Positions 5,443 to 13,693 are shown, counted from the first letter of the stretch. The stretch is 64,000 nt of DNA from Saprospiraceae bacterium (GCA_040401995.1 JBBANM010000030.1:3390-67389); one strand, 5' to 3'. Notes: generated by a model from the letters alone, not told the origin. A program made the numbers and translations.

Positions 5443-8400
5443 ATGACTGCCATTTCTGCCTACGTCCCCAAAAATAAGATCCGCCTCGTAACCGCCGCTT
5501 CGCTTTTTGACGGTCATGATGCGGCCATCAACATCATGCGGCGCATGCTCCAAAGCTCGGGCGCAGAAGTCATCCACCTCGGGCACAACCGCTCAGTGCA
5601 AGACATTGTGGATACTGCTATTCAAGAGGATGTGCAAGGTATTGCACTCACTTCCTACCAAGGCGGGCACAACGAGTTTTTTAGATACATGTACGATCTG
5701 TTACGGGAAAAAGGCGCCGGGCACATCAAGATTTTTGGCGGCGGGGGCGGCACTATTTTGCCTACCGAAATCGAAGAACTCCAACAATATGGCATCGCCC
5801 GCATCTACGCTCCCGACGACGGCCGACGCATGGGACTCCAAGGCATGATCAACGATTTATTATCGCAGTGCGACTTTCCGGTAGGGCAAAAACTAGACAG
5901 CGAATTGGAAACCATCGGCAGCGATAACCCGCATGCCATCGCCCGACTTATTTCGGCCCTCGAAAATTATCCGGAAGCAAATCGCAACTGGCAAGAAAAA
6001 CTCCACCAGCAGGTTGCTTCCCAAAAAATTCCCGTACTGGGCATCACTGGCACCGGCGGCGCAGGAAAATCCAGCTTGGTGGATGAACTGGTGCGGCGTT
6101 TTTTATTGGATTTTCCCGACAAAAAAATTGGCATCCTTTCTGTTGATCCTTCCAAACGCAAAACCGGCGGCGCACTCTTGGGCGACCGCATCCGCATGAA
6201 CGCAGTGGCGAACCCACGTGTGTACATGCGCTCCCTCGCAACCCGCCAGGCCAATTTGGCGCTCTCCAAACATGTAGGTGGCGCGGTGGATGTGCTCAAA
6301 GCGGCAGGGTTTGACCTTATCTTACTCGAAACCTCCGGCATTGGCCAGTCCGATACTGAAATTGTTGAGCACTCTGATGCGGCCTTGTATGTGATGACGC
6401 CCGAATTTGGCGCCGCTACCCAGCTGGAAAAAATTGACATGATTGATTTTGCCGACCTCATCTCTATCAACAAATTCGACAAACGCGGTGCGCTTGATGC
6501 CCTCCGCGATGTACGCAAGCAATACCAACGCGCCCATTTGGCCTGGGAAAAACCCTTGGAGGAAATGCCCGTTTTTGGCACCATTGCCGCCCAATTCAAC
6601 GATCCAGGAATGAATGCCTTGTACAGCGGCATCCTCAATGTGTTGAGAGAAAAAACTGGTGTTATTTTTGCCAGCAGCCTGGTTGCATCAACGCAACTGT
6701 CGGAAAAGATCTACATCATCCCGCCCAGTCGGGTACGCTACTTGTCGGAAATTGCTGAAAAAATCCGTGAATATAATCATTGGACGGAACGGCAAGCAGA
6801 TTTGGCCAACGCCTACCAGGCACTGAGCACTACCGCTCAATTGTTGCCCGAGGAGAATGACGCCCAAGCAATCATCGAAAAACTGCTGGCCGAAAAAAAG
6901 ATGGACTTAGATCGTCGCAGCCTTCAAGTGTTGGAGCAATGGGAGCAAAAAAAGACCCAATACCAAGGTGAAGAATACATCTACCAAGTGCGGGGCAAAG
7001 ACATTCGGGTAAAAACTTATACCGAAAGTTTGTCGCACACCAAAATCCCCAAAGTAGCCACTCCAAGTTATCACAGTTGGGGCGATCGTTTGCGCTGGGC
7101 GTTTCAGGAAAATTATCCAGGTGAATTCCCTTACGCGGCAGGCGTTTTCCCTTTCAAACGTCAAAACGAAGACCCCACGCGCATGTTTGCGGGCGAGGGC
7201 GGCCCCGAGCGTACCAACCGCCGTTTTCATTACCTTTCTTTAGGCATGCCCGCCAACCGCTTGTCGACGGCTTTTGATTCCGTCACTTTGTACGGCGAAG
7301 ACCCCGATCTGCGTCCCGATATTTATGGCAAAATTGGCAACTCGGGCGTAAGCGTTTGTTGCTTGGACGATGTCAAAAAACTCTACTCCGGTTTTGACCT
7401 TAGCGATCCCAAAACCTCCGTGTCGATGACGATCAATGGCCCTGCTGCCACCATCGCTGCGTTTTTTATGAACGCCGCAGTTGATCAGCAATGCGAAAAA
7501 TACATTCGCGCCGAAGGGTTGGAACAAGAGGTAGAAAAAAAACTCCAGCAGCGCTATGAAGCTCGCGGCCTACAGCGCCCCCGTTATCAGGGCGACTTAC
7601 CGGAAGGCAATAACGGACTTGGGCTTTTACTACTCGGCGTCACTGGCGACCAGGTATTAGAGCCCGCTGTTTATGAAAAAATAAAAGCGCAGACCCTCTC
7701 CGCAGTGCGGGGTACCGTGCAAGCCGATATCCTCAAAGAAGACCAGGCGCAGAATACCTGTATTTTTTCCACTGAATTTTCACTGCGTTTGATGGGCGAT
7801 ATGCAAGCCTATTTCGTAGAGCAGCAGGTGCGCAATTTTTATTCGGTGTCCATTTCTGGTTACCATATTGCGGAAGCAGGCGCTAATCCCATTTCGCAAT
7901 TGGCGTTCACCTTATCCAATGGGTTTACTTTTGTGGAGTACTATCTTTCACGGGGCATGCACATCGACGATTTTGCCCCCAACCTGTCTTTCTTTTTTTC
8001 CAACGGCGTAGATCCAGAATATGCGGTGATTGGAAGGGTAGCGCGCAAAATTTGGGCCAAGGCGATGAAAGAAAAATACGGCGCCAACGAACGCTCGCAA
8101 ATGCTCAAATACCACATCCAGACCTCCGGTCGCTCGCTGCATGCTCAAGAAATTGCCTTCAACGACATTCGCACTACCCTGCAAGCTCTTTATGCCATTT
8201 ACGATAATTGCAATTCCCTGCATACCAACGCCTATGATGAAGCCATCACCACGCCAACCGAAGAAAGCGTGCGGCGGGCTTTGGCCATTCAGCTGATCAT
8301 CAACCACGAGTTGGGTTTGGCCAAAAACGAAAACCCACTCCAAGGTGCGTTCATCATCGAAACATTGACCGAATTGGTGGAGGAAGCGGTACTGGCCGAA

Positions 8401-8823
8401 TTTGACCGCATCACCGAACGCGGCGGGGTGCTGGGCGCCATGGAAACCATGTACCAACGCGGAAAAATCCAGGAAGAAAGCCTGTACTATGAAACCCTGA
8501 AACACAATGGCGAGCTGCCGATCATTGGGGTAAATACTTTTTTGAGCAGCGAGGGCTCCCCTACCGTTACGCCCAATCAAGTTATTCGCGCCAATACCGC
8601 CGAAAAGGAAGAACAAATCGCGGCTTTGGAGGGACTGAAAGCGGCACAAGCCCCCCTGTCAGGTTACCCGGAATTCACGGCAATAACCCGTCAAATCCAA
8701 ACCACTGCCCTACAAAACGACAACCTTTTTGCCACCTTGATGGAAGCAACAAAATGGTGCTCCCTGGGGCAGATTACCCAAGTACTGTATGAGGTTGGCG
8801 GCCAATACCGCCGAAACATGTAA
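5443..8823 (+). CDS. icmF: Fused isobutyryl-CoA mutase (B12-binding domain + MeaB-like GTPase + mutase domain)
   Basis: 1126 aa. N-terminal B12 motif '[11 protein letters not shown]', P-loop '[17 protein letters not shown]', and a long C-terminal methylmalonyl-CoA-mutase-like domain. Confidence 0.9.
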
Positions 8824-10202: not shown

Positions 10203-10232
10203 GGATAAAATAATCGCAATGATTGCCGATAA

Positions 10233-10276
10233 AAAAGGGGAGGGAACCGCATTGGTTTTCTCCCCTTTTGTGTTTG
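10233..10276 (+). terminator. Rho-independent terminator after the desaturase gene
   Basis: Stem 'aaaaggggag' (10233-10242) pairs with 'ctcccctttt' (10260-10269), then 'gtgtttg'. Confidence 0.6.
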
Positions 10277-10407
10277 AAAAGGAATTACCATTAAAAACAG
10301 CAACATTGAAAAAGATGTAGTATTTTGATTGCAAGAAAAAAATATAGAAACAGAAAGATCAATCATAGCAGCAAAGCGAATCATTCACCAAAATAAATAG
10401 CCTCCAA

Positions 10408-10767
10408 ATGTCTAGAAAAATTGTCTCCATTGAATCCGATGACCTCGGCACGCTCTATTTTGAAGCCAATGACTACAACGTAGCCGATACTGGAAACTCC
10501 CGCGGAAGTGGTGGTTTAGAAAAAATTGGTCGCAAAGACGTCCCCGATGGCCGCTTCGAAACCGCACTGGGCACCATTAAAAAAGTAGCCGAAAAAGTGG
10601 TAGCGCAAATTCGAAGCATCGAAAACATTCCTGATGAAGTGGAATGCAAAATTGGCGTCACCTTTAGCGCGGATGCCAATGTCATTTTTTCTAAGATTGG
10701 CACCGAATGCAATCTGGAGCTCACCTTAAAATGGATCAAAGAAAAACCTGCTAAACCACAAGCTTAA
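10408..10767 (+). CDS. Small cytoplasmic protein resembling trypsin-co-occurring (Trypco2 / CU044_2847-like) partner proteins
   Basis: 119 aa with no signal peptide or TM segment. The layout is 'IVSIESDDLGTLYFEA', then a Gly/Ser/Arg/Lys linker, then 'PDEVECKIGVTFSADANVIFSKIGTECNLELTLKW'. Its stop TAA (10765-10767) overlaps the ATG of the next gene. Confidence 0.7.
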   Translation: MSRKIVSIESDDLGTLYFEANDYNVADTGNSRGSGGLEKIGRKDVPDGRFETALGTIKKVAEKVVAQIRSIENIPDEVECKIGVTFSADANVIFSKIGTECNLELTLKWIKEKPAKPQA

Positions 10768-11336
10768 TGGACATTCGCCATTGTATAGTCAGAGTAGGTA
10801 CGGGTAGTGGCATACTGGTACTGGGTAAAGATGATATTTCCTACATTCTTACCTGTGCGCATGTTTTGGGTGAAAATCATGAAGCTGTTGAAGTTGCATT
10901 TTGTGATGAAGAAGCCGCGTTTTCTCAAAAGACCACCACTTCTGTAATTGACTTTTGCCCAATTAAGGAGGAAGACATTGCTTTATTGGCCTGTCCTCCC
11001 ATTGTACCCCTACACTATCAATCTATCAAATTATTGAATTCATTGCATGGGCGAGGCTTACCTACGTTTACCTTTGGTTTTCCAATAAGTTTTGGAACAA
11101 ATGGTCGCGCTGATCGGTGCAAGATTGAAAATTTAGAGACCAAGACCAATGGCGGCTTCGATTTATTAACATTAAGTGAAGGTCAGGCACTCAAAGGTGG
11201 ATTTAGTGGTGGTCCACTATTGGACGCGCAGTACCGACACTGCTTGGGCATATTGCGTGATCTCGAAAAACCTGATGAATACACGAGCGAAGCTTTAGCC
11301 TATGCCTATGCCGCAGAGCGGATTGTGGAAAGATTT
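10767..11336 (+). other. Domain: trypsin-like (S1/Trypsin_2-type) protease module, aa 1-190
   Basis: The His32 codon 'cat' lies at 10860-10862. All three catalytic residues sit in canonical sequence contexts. Confidence 0.8.
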
Positions 11337-13652
11337 GAAAAATACCTTACCCTACAAACGCTTCACCCTTACCAAGCTGAATTACGCGCCATGTATCAAG
11401 AAGTGGTGTTAAACGACTCTAAAGGCATGACACTGGCCGATGTTTATATTGAACCGCATTATGGGATCCACCAAAATGGTTTTCCTAAAGATGATGAACG
11501 AATCAAAAATTTAGATAACCCATTTTTTCAAGTTGACAAGAGCCTTCACCACGATCTCATCACATTTTTTAAAGGTGGTAAAAGTCTTCTTTCACTTGAA
11601 GTAAAGCAATCAACTGTAATCCTTCTGTTGGGCGCCCCAGGACAGGGAAAAACCTCTTTTTGTAAACGAGTGATTTATGACTTAACCAGTGAAAAAACGA
11701 ATCCGTTTGGTCAAATCTACTGGTTAAGATTACGAGACATCCCAAACCCTATTGATTTAGCCATTTATCCTGAAAAAATCATCCTTGAGGAATTAAAAAC
11801 AAAAGTCACGGATTTAGAAATTAACTGGAAAAATTCCTTATTGATATTTGACGGCCTGGATGAGCTTTACATACAAGAAGGTTTTGGCAGCAGTAAAATT
11901 GACGAGATTTGTAAAAGCCTGGAAAACATGGCAGAGCGAAAAATAGGGTTACAAATTTTAATTACCTCTCGGTATGGATATGTTGATTTAGAGGCCTTAA
12001 AACAAAGAAACATTTTAATTCTGCGCTTGGAAGACTTGTCAGAAACTCAGCAAGAGCATTGGCTGACAAAATACCGTTTCTTTCATGAAGAGTCACCCTT
12101 AAAAATTGCCAACCTTAGGAAATATCGAGAACACCGATCTATTCAAGAATTGTTAGGGCAACCGATATTGCTACACATGATTGCCACTTTAAAAGAAGAT
12201 GCCAGCAATAAACCAAATCGAGCGGCTATTTATGGTTCATTAGTCAGTCAATTAGTCGAACGCCCTTGGTCAGCAAAAGGGCAGATCAATTTATTAAAAG
12301 ACATTGATTTAGATGAAAAAACACTAAGGCATGCTCTACAAGACATAGCCCATGCCATTTTTATCTCAGGCAAGGGGTATTTACGAAAAGAAGAATTAGA
12401 AAAATTACCAAAAGTTGAAACGATTCTGAATAAAATTCAGCAGCAAAATTTAAGCAATGACCTATTATGGCGAATTGTGATGAGTGCTAGTTACATGACT
12501 GACAAAAATAGAACAGCTGCTGATTTAGAAAATTCAGAAGATCAATCGGCCTATGGCATCGAATTTTTACACAAATCAATGTATGAATATCTTTGTGCAG
12601 AAAAAATTTGGCGAGATATTTTAAACGGATTTTTGGGTAAAGGGGATGATGGACAATGGAAAATTCGTGACGGTAACAGCGCATTAAATTTAGCACATGA
12701 CTTATTTTCAAGTGCCCCATTAAGTCAAGAAGTTCATGGTTACTTAGTAGAAATCATTCAAAACCATCACCCAGAAATCGATAAAAGTACACTTTCATCA
12801 CGAATGCAGGATCAATTTGCATATTGTTTAGAGCGACATTTTCTATATCAGTTTCATTCAAGTTCTCAAAAGTTTCCAATCCAAATGGCAATATCAACCT
12901 TTAAAGGCTATTGGAGTATTCTTAGTAACCTAGGTCAAAAAGTCAACTATATTGATTCAATATCGATATCTTCCCAATTCATATCATTAGTCCAAACTTC
13001 TTTCTTCAATACAATTTATAAGGATAATCTCAATTTAAGCTTTCAAAAACTGACTGGTTGTGAATTAACTGGTTCAAATTTTAATAATTCAAATATGTAT
13101 CATGTGGATTTATCCGAAGCTTTAATAGATCGCTCTTTCTTTTTTTCAGCAAATCTAGAAAGAGCTAATTTGAAAAAAGCTAACTTATTTCTATCTGTAT
13201 TAATCCATGCAAATCTAAATTATTCGGACCTATCTAAAGCAACTTTGAATGAAACAAATATGATGAGTTCAAATATCGTTAACGCAGATATGAGAGGTAC
13301 AAATTTAAGCGGTGCGAATTTATTCGATTCTTATTTAACTCATTCAGACTTAAGTAAAGCAATCTTATTAAAAACTATATTAAGTGATGCTGATCTTAGC
13401 TATGCTAATTTGAGCAATGCTCTTTTAACAAAAGCCGATTTGACAAATGCTAATTTAACAGGAGCCAAATTAAATAATGCATATTTGATTGGAACCAAAT
13501 TAAGAAGTGCCATTTTTACTTTAGAGCAACTCTTATCTACAAAATCTTTATATCAAGCAACGGGGATACCAGATGAGATGAAAAATGAATTAGAAGCACT
13601 GAAGCCATCCCTTTTTGATTTGCCTCAAATAGACGACAATGAATTCACATAA
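10767..13652 (+). CDS. Trypsin-like serine protease / NACHT-type STAND NTPase / pentapeptide-repeat fusion protein
   Basis: 961 aa. Protease triad contexts 'LTCAHVL' (H32), 'EEDIALL' (D70), 'GGFSGGPLL' (S147). Walker A 'GAPGQGKTS', Walker B 'LLIFDGLDEL', and 'ILITSR'. The C-terminus carries about 30 A(D/N)LXX repeats. Confidence 0.9.
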   Translation: MDIRHCIVRVGTGSGILVLGKDDISYILTCAHVLGENHEAVEVAFCDEEAAFSQKTTTSVIDFCPIKEEDIALLACPPIVPLHYQSIKLLNSLHGRGLPTFTFGFPISFGTNGRADRCKIENLETKTNGGFDLLTLSEGQALKGGFSGGPLLDAQYRHCLGILRDLEKPDEYTSEALAYAYAAERIVERFEKYLTLQTLHPYQAELRAMYQEVVLNDSKGMTLADVYIEPHYGIHQNGFPKDDERIKNLDNPFFQVDKSLHHDLITFFKGGKSLLSLEVKQSTVILLLGAPGQGKTSFCKRVIYDLTSEKTNPFGQIYWLRLRDIPNPIDLAIYPEKIILEELKTKVTDLEINWKNSLLIFDGLDELYIQEGFGSSKIDEICKSLENMAERKIGLQILITSRYGYVDLEALKQRNILILRLEDLSETQQEHWLTKYRFFHEESPLKIANLRKYREHRSIQELLGQPILLHMIATLKEDASNKPNRAAIYGSLVSQLVERPWSAKGQINLLKDIDLDEKTLRHALQDIAHAIFISGKGYLRKEELEKLPKVETILNKIQQQNLSNDLLWRIVMSASYMTDKNRTAADLENSEDQSAYGIEFLHKSMYEYLCAEKIWRDILNGFLGKGDDGQWKIRDGNSALNLAHDLFSSAPLSQEVHGYLVEIIQNHHPEIDKSTLSSRMQDQFAYCLERHFLYQFHSSSQKFPIQMAISTFKGYWSILSNLGQKVNYIDSISISSQFISLVQTSFFNTIYKDNLNLSFQKLTGCELTGSNFNNSNMYHVDLSEALIDRSFFFSANLERANLKKANLFLSVLIHANLNYSDLSKATLNETNMMSSNIVNADMRGTNLSGANLFDSYLTHSDLSKAILLKTILSDADLSYANLSNALLTKADLTNANLTGAKLNNAYLIGTKLRSAIFTLEQLLSTKSLYQATGIPDEMKNELEALKPSLFDLPQIDDNEFT
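11590..12206 (+). other. Domain: NACHT-like P-loop NTPase module, aa ~275-480
   Basis: Walker A is encoded at 11631-11654 ('ggcgccccaggacagggaaaaacc'). Walker B is 'LLIFDGLDEL' at aa 358-367. 'GQPILLHMI' lies at aa 464-472. Confidence 0.75.
13026..13514 (+). other. Domain: pentapeptide-repeat beta-helix, aa ~754-916
   Basis: Runs such as 'ANLERANLKKANL', 'TNLSGANLFDSYLTHSDLSKAILLKTILSDADLSYANLSNALLTKADLTNANLTGAKLNNAYL'. Confidence 0.85.
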
Positions 13653-13693
13653 AAAAGCCACTCAAGATTTCCTATCCCAAGCGGCTCTTTTTT
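13651..13693. terminator. Weak candidate bidirectional terminator between convergent genes
   Basis: 'aaaaaagcc' ... 'ggctctttttt', an imperfect stem with an A-tract and a T-tract. It lies in a 61-nt gap between convergent stops. Confidence 0.3.

Follow-up and report, generated by a model that had tools for sequence, protein, structure and literature searches.

Trypco1 and Trypco2 are small proteins that were named as mutually exclusive neighbors of trypsin-like peptidases in conflict systems (Kaur, Burroughs, Iyer and Aravind, eLife 2020, PMC7159879), a study that assigned no function to Trypco1. The closest system with experimental support comes from Streptomyces subrutilus, in which SsPepco, encoded upstream of a protease-bearing Avs4, is a protease-licensed β-barrel pore (Evans et al., bioRxiv 2025, 10.1101/2025.11.14.688446). 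SsPepco forms β-barrels of 9-10 subunits, with a charged lumen and a hydrophobic exterior, that resist sodium dodecyl sulfate (SDS), and SsAvs4 cuts it after a conserved I97, taking off a charged, proline-rich tail; cleavage licenses the pre-formed barrel, and the exact truncation is lethal. Toxicity of the pair requires the small protein, the catalytic serine, and the N-terminal amphipathic helix. Without the small protein, this Trypco2 system was no longer toxic, and the protease-Pepco pair could be exchanged for a nuclease domain. The same study describes EACC1-caspase-Avs12, in which an N-terminal autoinhibitory β-fragment is cut off a C-terminal pore-forming part. Here, we analyze a two-gene cassette in a 64,000-nucleotide (nt) stretch of Saprospiraceae bacterium (GCA_040401995.1 JBBANM010000030.1:3390-67389; hereafter the window, with coordinates counted from its first letter), in which a Trypco1 gene is followed by a gene encoding a trypsin-like protease fused to a NACHT NTPase and a pentapeptide-repeat β-helix. 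We propose, with a probability of roughly 0.6, that this cassette is a horizontally acquired, self-contained NLR-type abortive-infection (cell-suicide) module, whose protease would cut Trypco1 into a membrane-toxic effector.

In Kibby et al. (10.1101/2022.07.19.500537), trypsin peptidases are listed among the N-terminal effectors of bacterial NACHT proteins, and pentapeptide repeats among their C-terminal 'superstructure-forming repeat' sensors. In the preprint text consulted, the bNACHT proteins brought to the fore come from clades such as the short-C-terminal clade 14, and no tested protein has a Trypco partner, a trypsin effector, or a pentapeptide sensor. The literature that we searched likewise contained no phage-tested homolog of the large protein of the cassette. 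Every part of the cassette has already been catalogued computationally, the effector and sensor types by Kibby et al. and Trypco1 and Trypco2 by Kaur et al., and the logic of the module class is experimentally supported, while the specific combination, the uncharacterized Trypco1 family, and a pentapeptide sensor without a known ligand are new. A first-pass annotation of the locus had presented it as a candidate uncharacterized conflict system and knew of no experimental characterization of the combination. For the module class this no longer holds, as the class is now characterized through the pore formed by SsPepco with a protease-Avs4 (Evans et al. 2025).

The cassette is organized as follows (aa, amino acids).

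10408-10767, + strand: Trypco1 (CU044_2847 family) gene, 119 aa, ATG start
10765-10769, + strand: TAATG stop/start overlap of 1 nt (TAA 10765-10767, ATG 10767-10769)
10767-13652, + strand: protease-NACHT-pentapeptide gene, 961 aa, ATG start
10767-11336, + strand: trypsin-like protease domain (Trypsin_2, distantly HtrA/DegP-like), aa 1-190
10860-10862, 10974-10976, and 11205-11207, + strand: codons of the catalytic residues H32, D70, and S147
11337-11603, + strand: conserved linker or pre-NACHT region, aa 191-279, with Q197, Y202, L206, Y210, D217, L223, D225, and F253 invariant
11604-12086, + strand: NACHT nucleotide-binding domain, aa 280-440, with the K295 codon at 11649-11651
12087-13016, + strand: NACHT helical and winged-helix modules, aa 441-750
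13017-13514, + strand: pentapeptide-repeat right-handed β-helix, aa 751-916, about 31 rungs; proposed sensor
13515-13652, + strand: C-terminal helical cap and stop codon, aa 917-961, with L942 and F950 invariant

The TAATG overlap couples translation of the two genes, and the pair is very likely co-expressed. Gene calls and junction agree with the open reading frames (ORFs) of 119 and 961 aa, overlapping by 1 nt, that the first-pass annotation had reported.

The domain identities of the large protein were determined with Pfam profiles, which matched Trypsin_2 at aa 13-162 (36.4 bits against a cut-off of 27.6), NACHT at aa 284-436 (38.2 bits against 26.7), and Pentapeptide in five stretches over approximately aa 755-918 (E 2.9e-32, above the gathering score). 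The protease domain (aa 3-176) was also matched by the PADLOC LmuA-protease model at 1.3e-14, and a PDB search aligned it with HtrA structures at an E-value of about 5e-4. Conservation was assessed in an alignment of 16 full-length homologs with 35-53% identity and in a second alignment of 46 homologs of the NACHT-pentapeptide chassis. The catalytic residues H32, D70, and S147 are invariant in 16/16 full-length homologs, as are the Walker A motif GAPGQGKTS (G289-S297, including K295), the Walker B motif LLIFDGLDEL (D362, G363, D365, E366), and the sensor-1 residue R402 in ILITSR; the NACHT motifs are also nearly invariant among the 46 chassis homologs. Judged from the alignments, this residue conservation is far above chance expectation. 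Because the triad, both Walker motifs, and R402 remain invariant at this level of identity, both enzymatic activities are under purifying selection. The NACHT motifs are reportedly those set out by Koonin and Aravind in 2000, namely a Walker A of the form GxxGxGK[ST], a Walker B of D-G-x-D-E in which the Asp is followed by a small residue and, two positions further, by acidic ones, and a sensor-1 Arg, all of which are present in the 961-aa protein. The columns of a further motif, E599-F600-x-H602-x-S604-x-x-E607-Y608-L609-x-A611, are invariant in the 16 homologs and also across the 46 chassis homologs; this motif, in the helical and winged-helix modules, resembles the NLR winged-helix 'FxHxSxQEF' histidine motif.

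These assignments are consistent with an AlphaFold2 model of the 961-aa protein, built from 46 sequences, with a predicted local distance difference test (pLDDT) of 84.5 and a predicted template modeling score (pTM) of 0.72. The model has 31 evenly spaced β rungs between residues 755 and 906, followed by a helical cap. Its top Foldseek matches in the PDB were NOD2 (5irm), NLRC4 (4kxf), and NLRP3, with E-values from 6e-15 to 1e-13 and a probability of 1.00, and the NLR structures matched are ADP-bound, autoinhibited forms. The repeat region matched pentapeptide solenoids among solved structures. The predicted model thus displays the arrangement of nucleotide-binding, helical, and winged-helix domains of animal NLRs, and the protein shares this fold, along with a tripartite effector-NACHT-sensor architecture, with the bNACHT anti-phage proteins. 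The intact protease triad, the NACHT-type STAND NTPase, the roughly 30 pentapeptide repeats, and the overall effector-STAND-sensor order read from the sequence in the first-pass annotation are all upheld by these results.

The 119-aa protein matches Trypco1 (PF19493; E 2e-17, 64 bits against a cut-off of 24.6, profile positions 3-96 of 98) and NCBIfam CU044_2847 (NF041216; E 4.6e-15, 56.1 bits against 23), so that the profile searches recover the protease, NACHT, Pentapeptide, and Trypco1 families across the two proteins, as anticipated. It is predicted to consist of a β-hairpin (aa 4-20), a variable disordered linker (21-48), an amphipathic helix (49-69), and amphipathic strands (77-110). The helix, which is internal rather than N-terminal, has a hydrophobic moment of 0.49 (p 0.04 against shuffles), and the strands at 77-88 and 100-110 show strict polar/hydrophobic alternation (z 3.2 and 2.1). 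The C-terminus consists of W109 followed by a 10-aa tail, IKEKPAKPQA, that is 40% charged and 20% proline. In an alignment of 162 of the 1,587 representatives that a family search returned, this Trp is invariant (162/162). The position after it (110; Ile in the window) is variable (among 160 sequences, 79 have K, 17 T, 11 S, 9 R, and 8 V), and the tail beyond W109 has a median length of 8 aa (range 0-26). In addition, a linker motif of the form [VIL]-[SGTA]-[RK] is enriched, occurring in 51/161 sequences against 29.6 +/- 4.6 in shuffles. Since residue 110 varies, the tail is short, and the linker motif is enriched, there are two candidate cleavage sites, one C-terminal and one in the linker. 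The first candidate lies just past the invariant W109, where the protease of the window would cut after I110 in W-I110-K-E-K, and the second in the disordered linker at a semi-conserved [VI]-[SGT]-[RK], which in the window reads K-I40-G-R42. In two relatives, the Trypco1 gene calls are longer than the usual ~115 aa (L003:9322-10017, 231 aa; L032:9490-9999, 169 aa), reflecting N-terminal extensions or miscalled starts.

The full protease-NACHT-pentapeptide architecture is rare. It was found in 16 clusters among 5.8 billion protein clusters, and at 3 loci among 185,579 species representatives, two in Saprospiraceae and one in Chitinophagales. Approximately 70 further clusters, nearly all from Bacteroidota, share the NACHT-pentapeptide chassis from about residue 185 onward and carry NNH3, NNH5, Schlafen/AlbA_2, CHAT, or SMEK modules at the N-terminus in place of the protease. 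Trypco1 is directly upstream at 10/10 distinct protease-type loci (the window, L001, L003, L004, L008, L024, L027, L029, L030, and L032), with spacing among relatives from a 17-nt overlap to a 52-nt gap, and is absent at 19/19 loci where the chassis has another N-terminus (Fisher exact p ~5e-8). Because the same chassis bears single alternative modules at this position, protease plus Trypco1 fills the effector slot. Such effector swapping on a constant switch-sensor chassis is a signature of immune STAND proteins.

Neighborhoods of the Trypco1-STAND pair are never conserved among related loci, and the concern raised in the first-pass annotation, that homologs might be confined to conserved housekeeping synteny, is dispelled by this and by one relative that lies within a CRISPR-Cas operon. 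In that Chitinophagales metagenome-assembled genome (L008:1973-20428), the pair is inside a type III-B operon, oriented in the same direction and separated from cmr1 by 52 nt. The order is CorA-like, small transmembrane ORF, Trypco1, STAND, Cmr1, Cas10, Cmr3, Cmr4, Cmr5, Cmr6, and Cas6, with a reverse transcriptase upstream. This placement may reflect defense-island clustering or a functional CRISPR accessory. An AAA_15/AAA_21-DUF4276 pair is found near the cassette in L029. At two related Saprospiraceae-type loci, the gene immediately upstream of Trypco1 encodes a PIN_3 (VapC-like) toxin and is itself preceded by a small antitoxin-like ORF (L001:8992-9637 and L024:586-1231).

Searches for Trypco1 in IMG/VR or GenBank phages, and for the full architecture on plasmids, found none. 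A chassis homolog without the protease N-terminus (34% identity, residues 202-948) is encoded on a contig classed as viral (L026:8001-10235, IMGVR_UViG_3300021341_000070), which may be a prophage, a misclassified sequence, or a copy carried by a phage. NACHT-pentapeptide proteins with 25-27% identity over 60-69% of the query are present on the cyanobacterial plasmids NZ_CP046706.1 (Nostoc) and NZ_CP064924.1 (Acaryochloris), and the chassis type therefore occurs on mobile replicons outside Bacteroidota too.

The mobility of the window cassette itself is evident from sister contigs, which were selected by a desaturase at least 90% identical to that of the window and all of which share the whole syntenic block. 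The site has these features.

10212-13674, no strand assigned: strain-specific inserted segment, 3,463 bp, holding the whole cassette
10233-10269, + strand: intrinsic-terminator-like hairpin, 16-bp arms, 5-nt loop, U-tract
13651-13693, no strand assigned: ancestral bidirectional terminator, serving mainly the convergent type IX secretion system (T9SS) cargo gene
Three-state site: window 10203-13693; L036:10690-10727; L034:11101-13145

In blastn comparisons with L034, whose flanks are 93-96% identical at the nt level, homology ends at 10211/10212 and starts again at 13675, which makes the cassette a strain-specific segment of 3,463 bp. L036 and L037 (85-86.5% nt identity) have only 36 unmatched bases between the desaturase and the cargo-gene terminator, and this site is thus empty. 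L034 and L035 (93-96% identity) carry instead a different 2-kb segment with a 627-aa DUF4140/DUF4139/CarboxypepD_reg gene. Among these closely related genomes, the intergenic region that separates the desaturase from the T9SS cargo gene is a hotspot with three states: empty, with the DUF4140/DUF4139 gene, or with the Trypco1-STAND cassette. Moreover, GC content drops from 0.45-0.50 in the flanks to 0.31-0.43 in the segment and is 0.31-0.36 over the 3' half of the large gene. The cassette was recently acquired, probably by horizontal transfer. Within 10400-13650, the Trypco1 and protease parts have a GC content of ~0.43 and the pentapeptide region one of 0.31, a gradient that may stem from the Asn/Leu/Ser-rich composition of the repeats or from a chimeric origin of the effector and sensor halves. 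The candidate conflict system proposed in the first-pass annotation is supported by the empty site, the low GC (0.31-0.36), the effector swapping, and the relative in a type III-B operon.

The insert contains no integrase or transposase, and the window no tRNA or Rfam family. The empty site has a single copy of ATAAAAAAG, and the window has one at each end of its insert (10229-10237 and 13649-13657); a 21-nt flanking repeat reduces to this shared ATAAAAAAG at the terminator A-tract, which may be chance or microhomology. The left hairpin (-26.6 kcal/mol, z -4.4, with 0/200 shuffles as stable) ends desaturase transcription, so that the cassette should be transcribed from a promoter of its own in 10270-10407, although neither a sigma-70-like site nor the Bacteroidota TAnnTTTG motif was found there. 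The right hairpin reaches -9.6 kcal/mol on the + strand and -22.4 kcal/mol (z -6.2) on the - strand, and its 3' arm is homologous to the single terminator of the L036 empty site and to that of L034. Both of the hairpins that the first-pass annotation had placed around the cassette thus exist, but the right one, which it had called weak, is weak on the + strand only and is ancestral rather than cassette-specific. The flanking genes encode a fatty-acid desaturase and a Por_Secre_tail protein, matching the desaturase and convergent T9SS cargo gene read there earlier.

The putative sensor is the fastest-changing part of the large protein. The pentapeptide region and cap are 30-38% identical to the closest homologs, as compared with 54-62% in the protease and NACHT, a gap that may be somewhat overstated because repeat alignments are error-prone. 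Among homologs with the full architecture (including P0010, 1205 aa), the pentapeptide region varies in length from 121 to 424 aa, and the net charge of the β-helix spans -22 to +9 across the family, with a value of 0 for the window protein. This variation suggests repeat expansion and contraction and differing ligands.

The window pair resembles SsPepco-SsAvs4 in several respects. In both, a gene for a protein of ~117-119 aa is directly upstream of, and co-expressed with, that of a large STAND NTPase, the STAND protein begins with a trypsin-like serine protease, and the protease and its partner fill a slot that is exchangeable in related proteins. Trypco1 is also predicted to have features of the kinds described for SsPepco, namely an amphipathic helix, alternating amphipathic β-strands, and, in the window protein, a charged, proline-rich C-terminal tail. 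Based on this analogy, Trypco1 is most likely both the substrate of the protease and a pore-forming effector; of the two roles offered for the small partner in the first-pass annotation, substrate or regulator, that of substrate is the more likely, with the addition that it would be a death effector and not a mere regulator. Together, these results establish the domain identities, the catalytic conservation, the obligate linkage of Trypco1 to the protease, and the effector swapping; they also show that the cassette is accessory and mobile and that its sensor evolves fast. In the mechanism that we propose, the 961-aa protein would rest as an ADP-bound, autoinhibited monomer until the pentapeptide β-helix and cap bind an invader-derived cue. 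Nucleotide exchange in the NACHT would then drive oligomerization, bringing the trypsin-like protease domains together and activating them by proximity. The protease would cut the co-translated Trypco1, an amphipathic helix plus β-hairpin protein that would be harmless uncut, and the processed form would act as an oligomeric membrane pore, such that the cell is killed or arrested before phage progeny are released.

Several observations weigh against this abortive-infection reading. Since Evans et al. worked with Trypco2 and the window has Trypco1, the SsPepco mechanism transfers by analogy only. SsPepco, taken from the supplement of that paper, matches Trypco2 (PF19631; E 5e-18) and not Trypco1, and the window protein matches Trypco1 only. 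Trypco1 and Trypco2 profiles (162 against 93 sequences, the latter from Streptomyces only) showed no significant similarity in hhalign, with probabilities of 2.6-5% and a single-comparison P of ~0.017, over trials of single sequence against profile, deep profile against profile, core-restricted, local, global, and relaxed settings. The relaxed alignment is collinear (helix, strand, strand, strand), but as no run was significant, the window protein is not filed under Pepco/Trypco2, and membership in that family is rejected. Trypco1 also has an extra 48 aa of N-terminal hairpin and linker before the helix. The P1 isoleucine of Trypco2 is not conserved across the family, in which position 110 is Lys in about half of the sequences, and the tail past W109 is much shorter and can be as little as 0-2 aa. 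The AlphaFold2 monomer of Trypco1 has a pLDDT of 52, too poor for a fold search. The similarity of the window protease to that of SsAvs4 is marginal (E 0.075), the NTPase is a NACHT rather than an Avs4, and the sensor is a pentapeptide β-helix rather than a portal-binding TPR-like domain. The hosts also differ, Bacteroidota as against Actinobacteria. By its profile matches, the cassette belongs with Trypco1 and the bacterial NACHT proteins and not with the Trypco2 or Avs families. Finally, the 64-kb window has no defense genes near the cassette, and PADLOC, which the first-pass annotation had proposed as a check, recognizes no defense system there.

A tentative and less probable variant holds that Trypco1 is a protease-licensed pore that either arose independently or has diverged to an extreme degree, that it is activated unlike Trypco2, and that the pentapeptide β-helix is a new class of NLR ligand sensor. 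Cleavage would then take place at the linker motif [VI]-[SGT]-[RK] or directly after the invariant Trp and would free an autoinhibitory N-terminal β-hairpin, in the manner of EACC1. Like EACC1-caspase-Avs12, the window would encode a small propeptide, beside a protease-STAND fusion, that is activated by one cleavage, and the layout of Trypco1, with an N-terminal hairpin, a disordered linker, and a helix plus hairpin, would permit a similar mode. The likeness is in layout only, as there is no sequence relationship and the EACC1-associated protease is a cysteine rather than a serine enzyme. The β-helix would in this variant recognize a phage cue without a known TPR, LRR, or WD40 sensor; we know of no ligand for an NLR sensor of the pentapeptide β-helix type. 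A different and rather unlikely proposal retains the same NLR-like switch but casts Trypco1 as an adaptor, chaperone, or inhibitor, with the activated protease itself degrading host or phage proteins. It would fit the classification of Trypco1 as an adaptor-type domain by Dore et al. and the lack of a function in Kaur et al. 2020, and it draws on the missing homology to the characterized Trypco2, on the want of a conserved P1 Ile and, often, of almost any C-terminal tail, and on the resemblance of the protease domain to stand-alone effector proteases of, for example, the LmuA type. However, paralogous chassis carry single-domain effectors without a partner gene, while the protease never occurs without Trypco1 (10/10 loci), and the amphipathic helix and alternating strands suit a membrane-active protein better than an inhibitor. 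The Trypco2 analog, moreover, needs its small protein for toxicity, and there a nuclease domain could stand in for the protease-Pepco pair.

It is improbable that the cassette has no antiviral role and is instead a nucleoside triphosphate-gated proteolytic switch for programmed cell death, kin discrimination, or stress that responds to an endogenous cue in filamentous or gliding Bacteroidota. Kaur et al. (PMC7159879) tie such systems to multicellular habits, those relatives that have a name belong to Saprospiraceae and Chitinophagales, fusions of protease-effector modules to DnaK-like domains point to stress-response roles (Evans et al., 10.1101/2025.11.14.688446), and the window lacks defense neighbors. 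Yet genomes that are nearly identical differ in whether they have the cassette, which speaks against a core developmental role, and the rarity of the family (3/185,579 species representatives), the fast evolution of its sensor, and the relative embedded in a CRISPR-Cas operon also weigh against this reading. Very little probability attaches to the notion that the pentapeptide domain is not a sensor but a Qnr/MfpA-like DNA mimic that targets gyrase or another protein that binds DNA, whether to serve as an effector or to guard a host target. The fold is that of Qnr and MfpA, whose NCBIfam models match at 1e-9 to 1e-12, and the helices of some homologs are strongly acidic (net charge -10 to -22). 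These matches score 31-46 bits, however, far below the family cut-offs of 240-500, and with charges across the family spanning both signs there is no consistent mimic; because the net charge of the window β-helix is 0, the idea was rejected for this protein. The domain also occupies the sensor position of STAND/NLR proteins and is the most variable part of the protein.

We also compared the cassette with other known defense families. No Avs model was among the PADLOC-DB matches of the 961-aa protein, excluding Avs/AVAST (Avs1-5), and the only matches were partial ones to LmuA-protease, RT-Protease, mad8, and IetA. A Lamassu system of the LmuA protease type was rejected because only the protease domain matches and there is no LmuB/SMC partner among the neighbors. 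The Trypco-trypsin pairings of the vWA-MoxR (VMAP) ternary systems (Kaur et al., PMC7159879) are alike in that a Trypco1 or Trypco2 gene adjoins a trypsin-like peptidase and a conflict system is predicted. In the window, by contrast, the protease is fused to NACHT-pentapeptide and there are two genes rather than three components; no MoxR/vWA pair was found beside the cassette with Pfam among 76 neighboring genes in the window and five related loci, and a VMAP assignment was rejected. A VWA gene without MoxR lies 2 kb from the cassette in L030. A defense island in the window genome was likewise rejected, as the 42 neighboring genes scanned are housekeeping genes with generic single-protein PADLOC matches only. 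Otherwise, the window encodes housekeeping functions, including HemD, NUDIX, an IcmF-like fused mutase, MerR, AhpC, ABC-F, SecA, pyruvate kinase, and KAS. The mutase gene (5443-8823) encodes an ordinary 1126-aa fusion of B12-binding, MeaB GTPase, and methylmalonyl-CoA-mutase domains that is conserved in all sister contigs.

As a compact two-gene system, the cassette would allow its cleavage rule to be read by mass spectrometry and its trigger to be found by co-expression screens, as was done for Avs. If our interpretation is correct, the natural set of genomes with and without the module (empty, alternative cargo, and cassette, with 85-96% flank identity) would show how such modules move into Bacteroidota chromosomes without integrases, and a bacterial NLR would sense through a pentapeptide β-helix. 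Trypco2 is the sole tested small-barrel example among protease-licensed death effectors, and Trypco1, with approximately 1,600 clusters at 50% identity, would be a second small-protein family of this kind.

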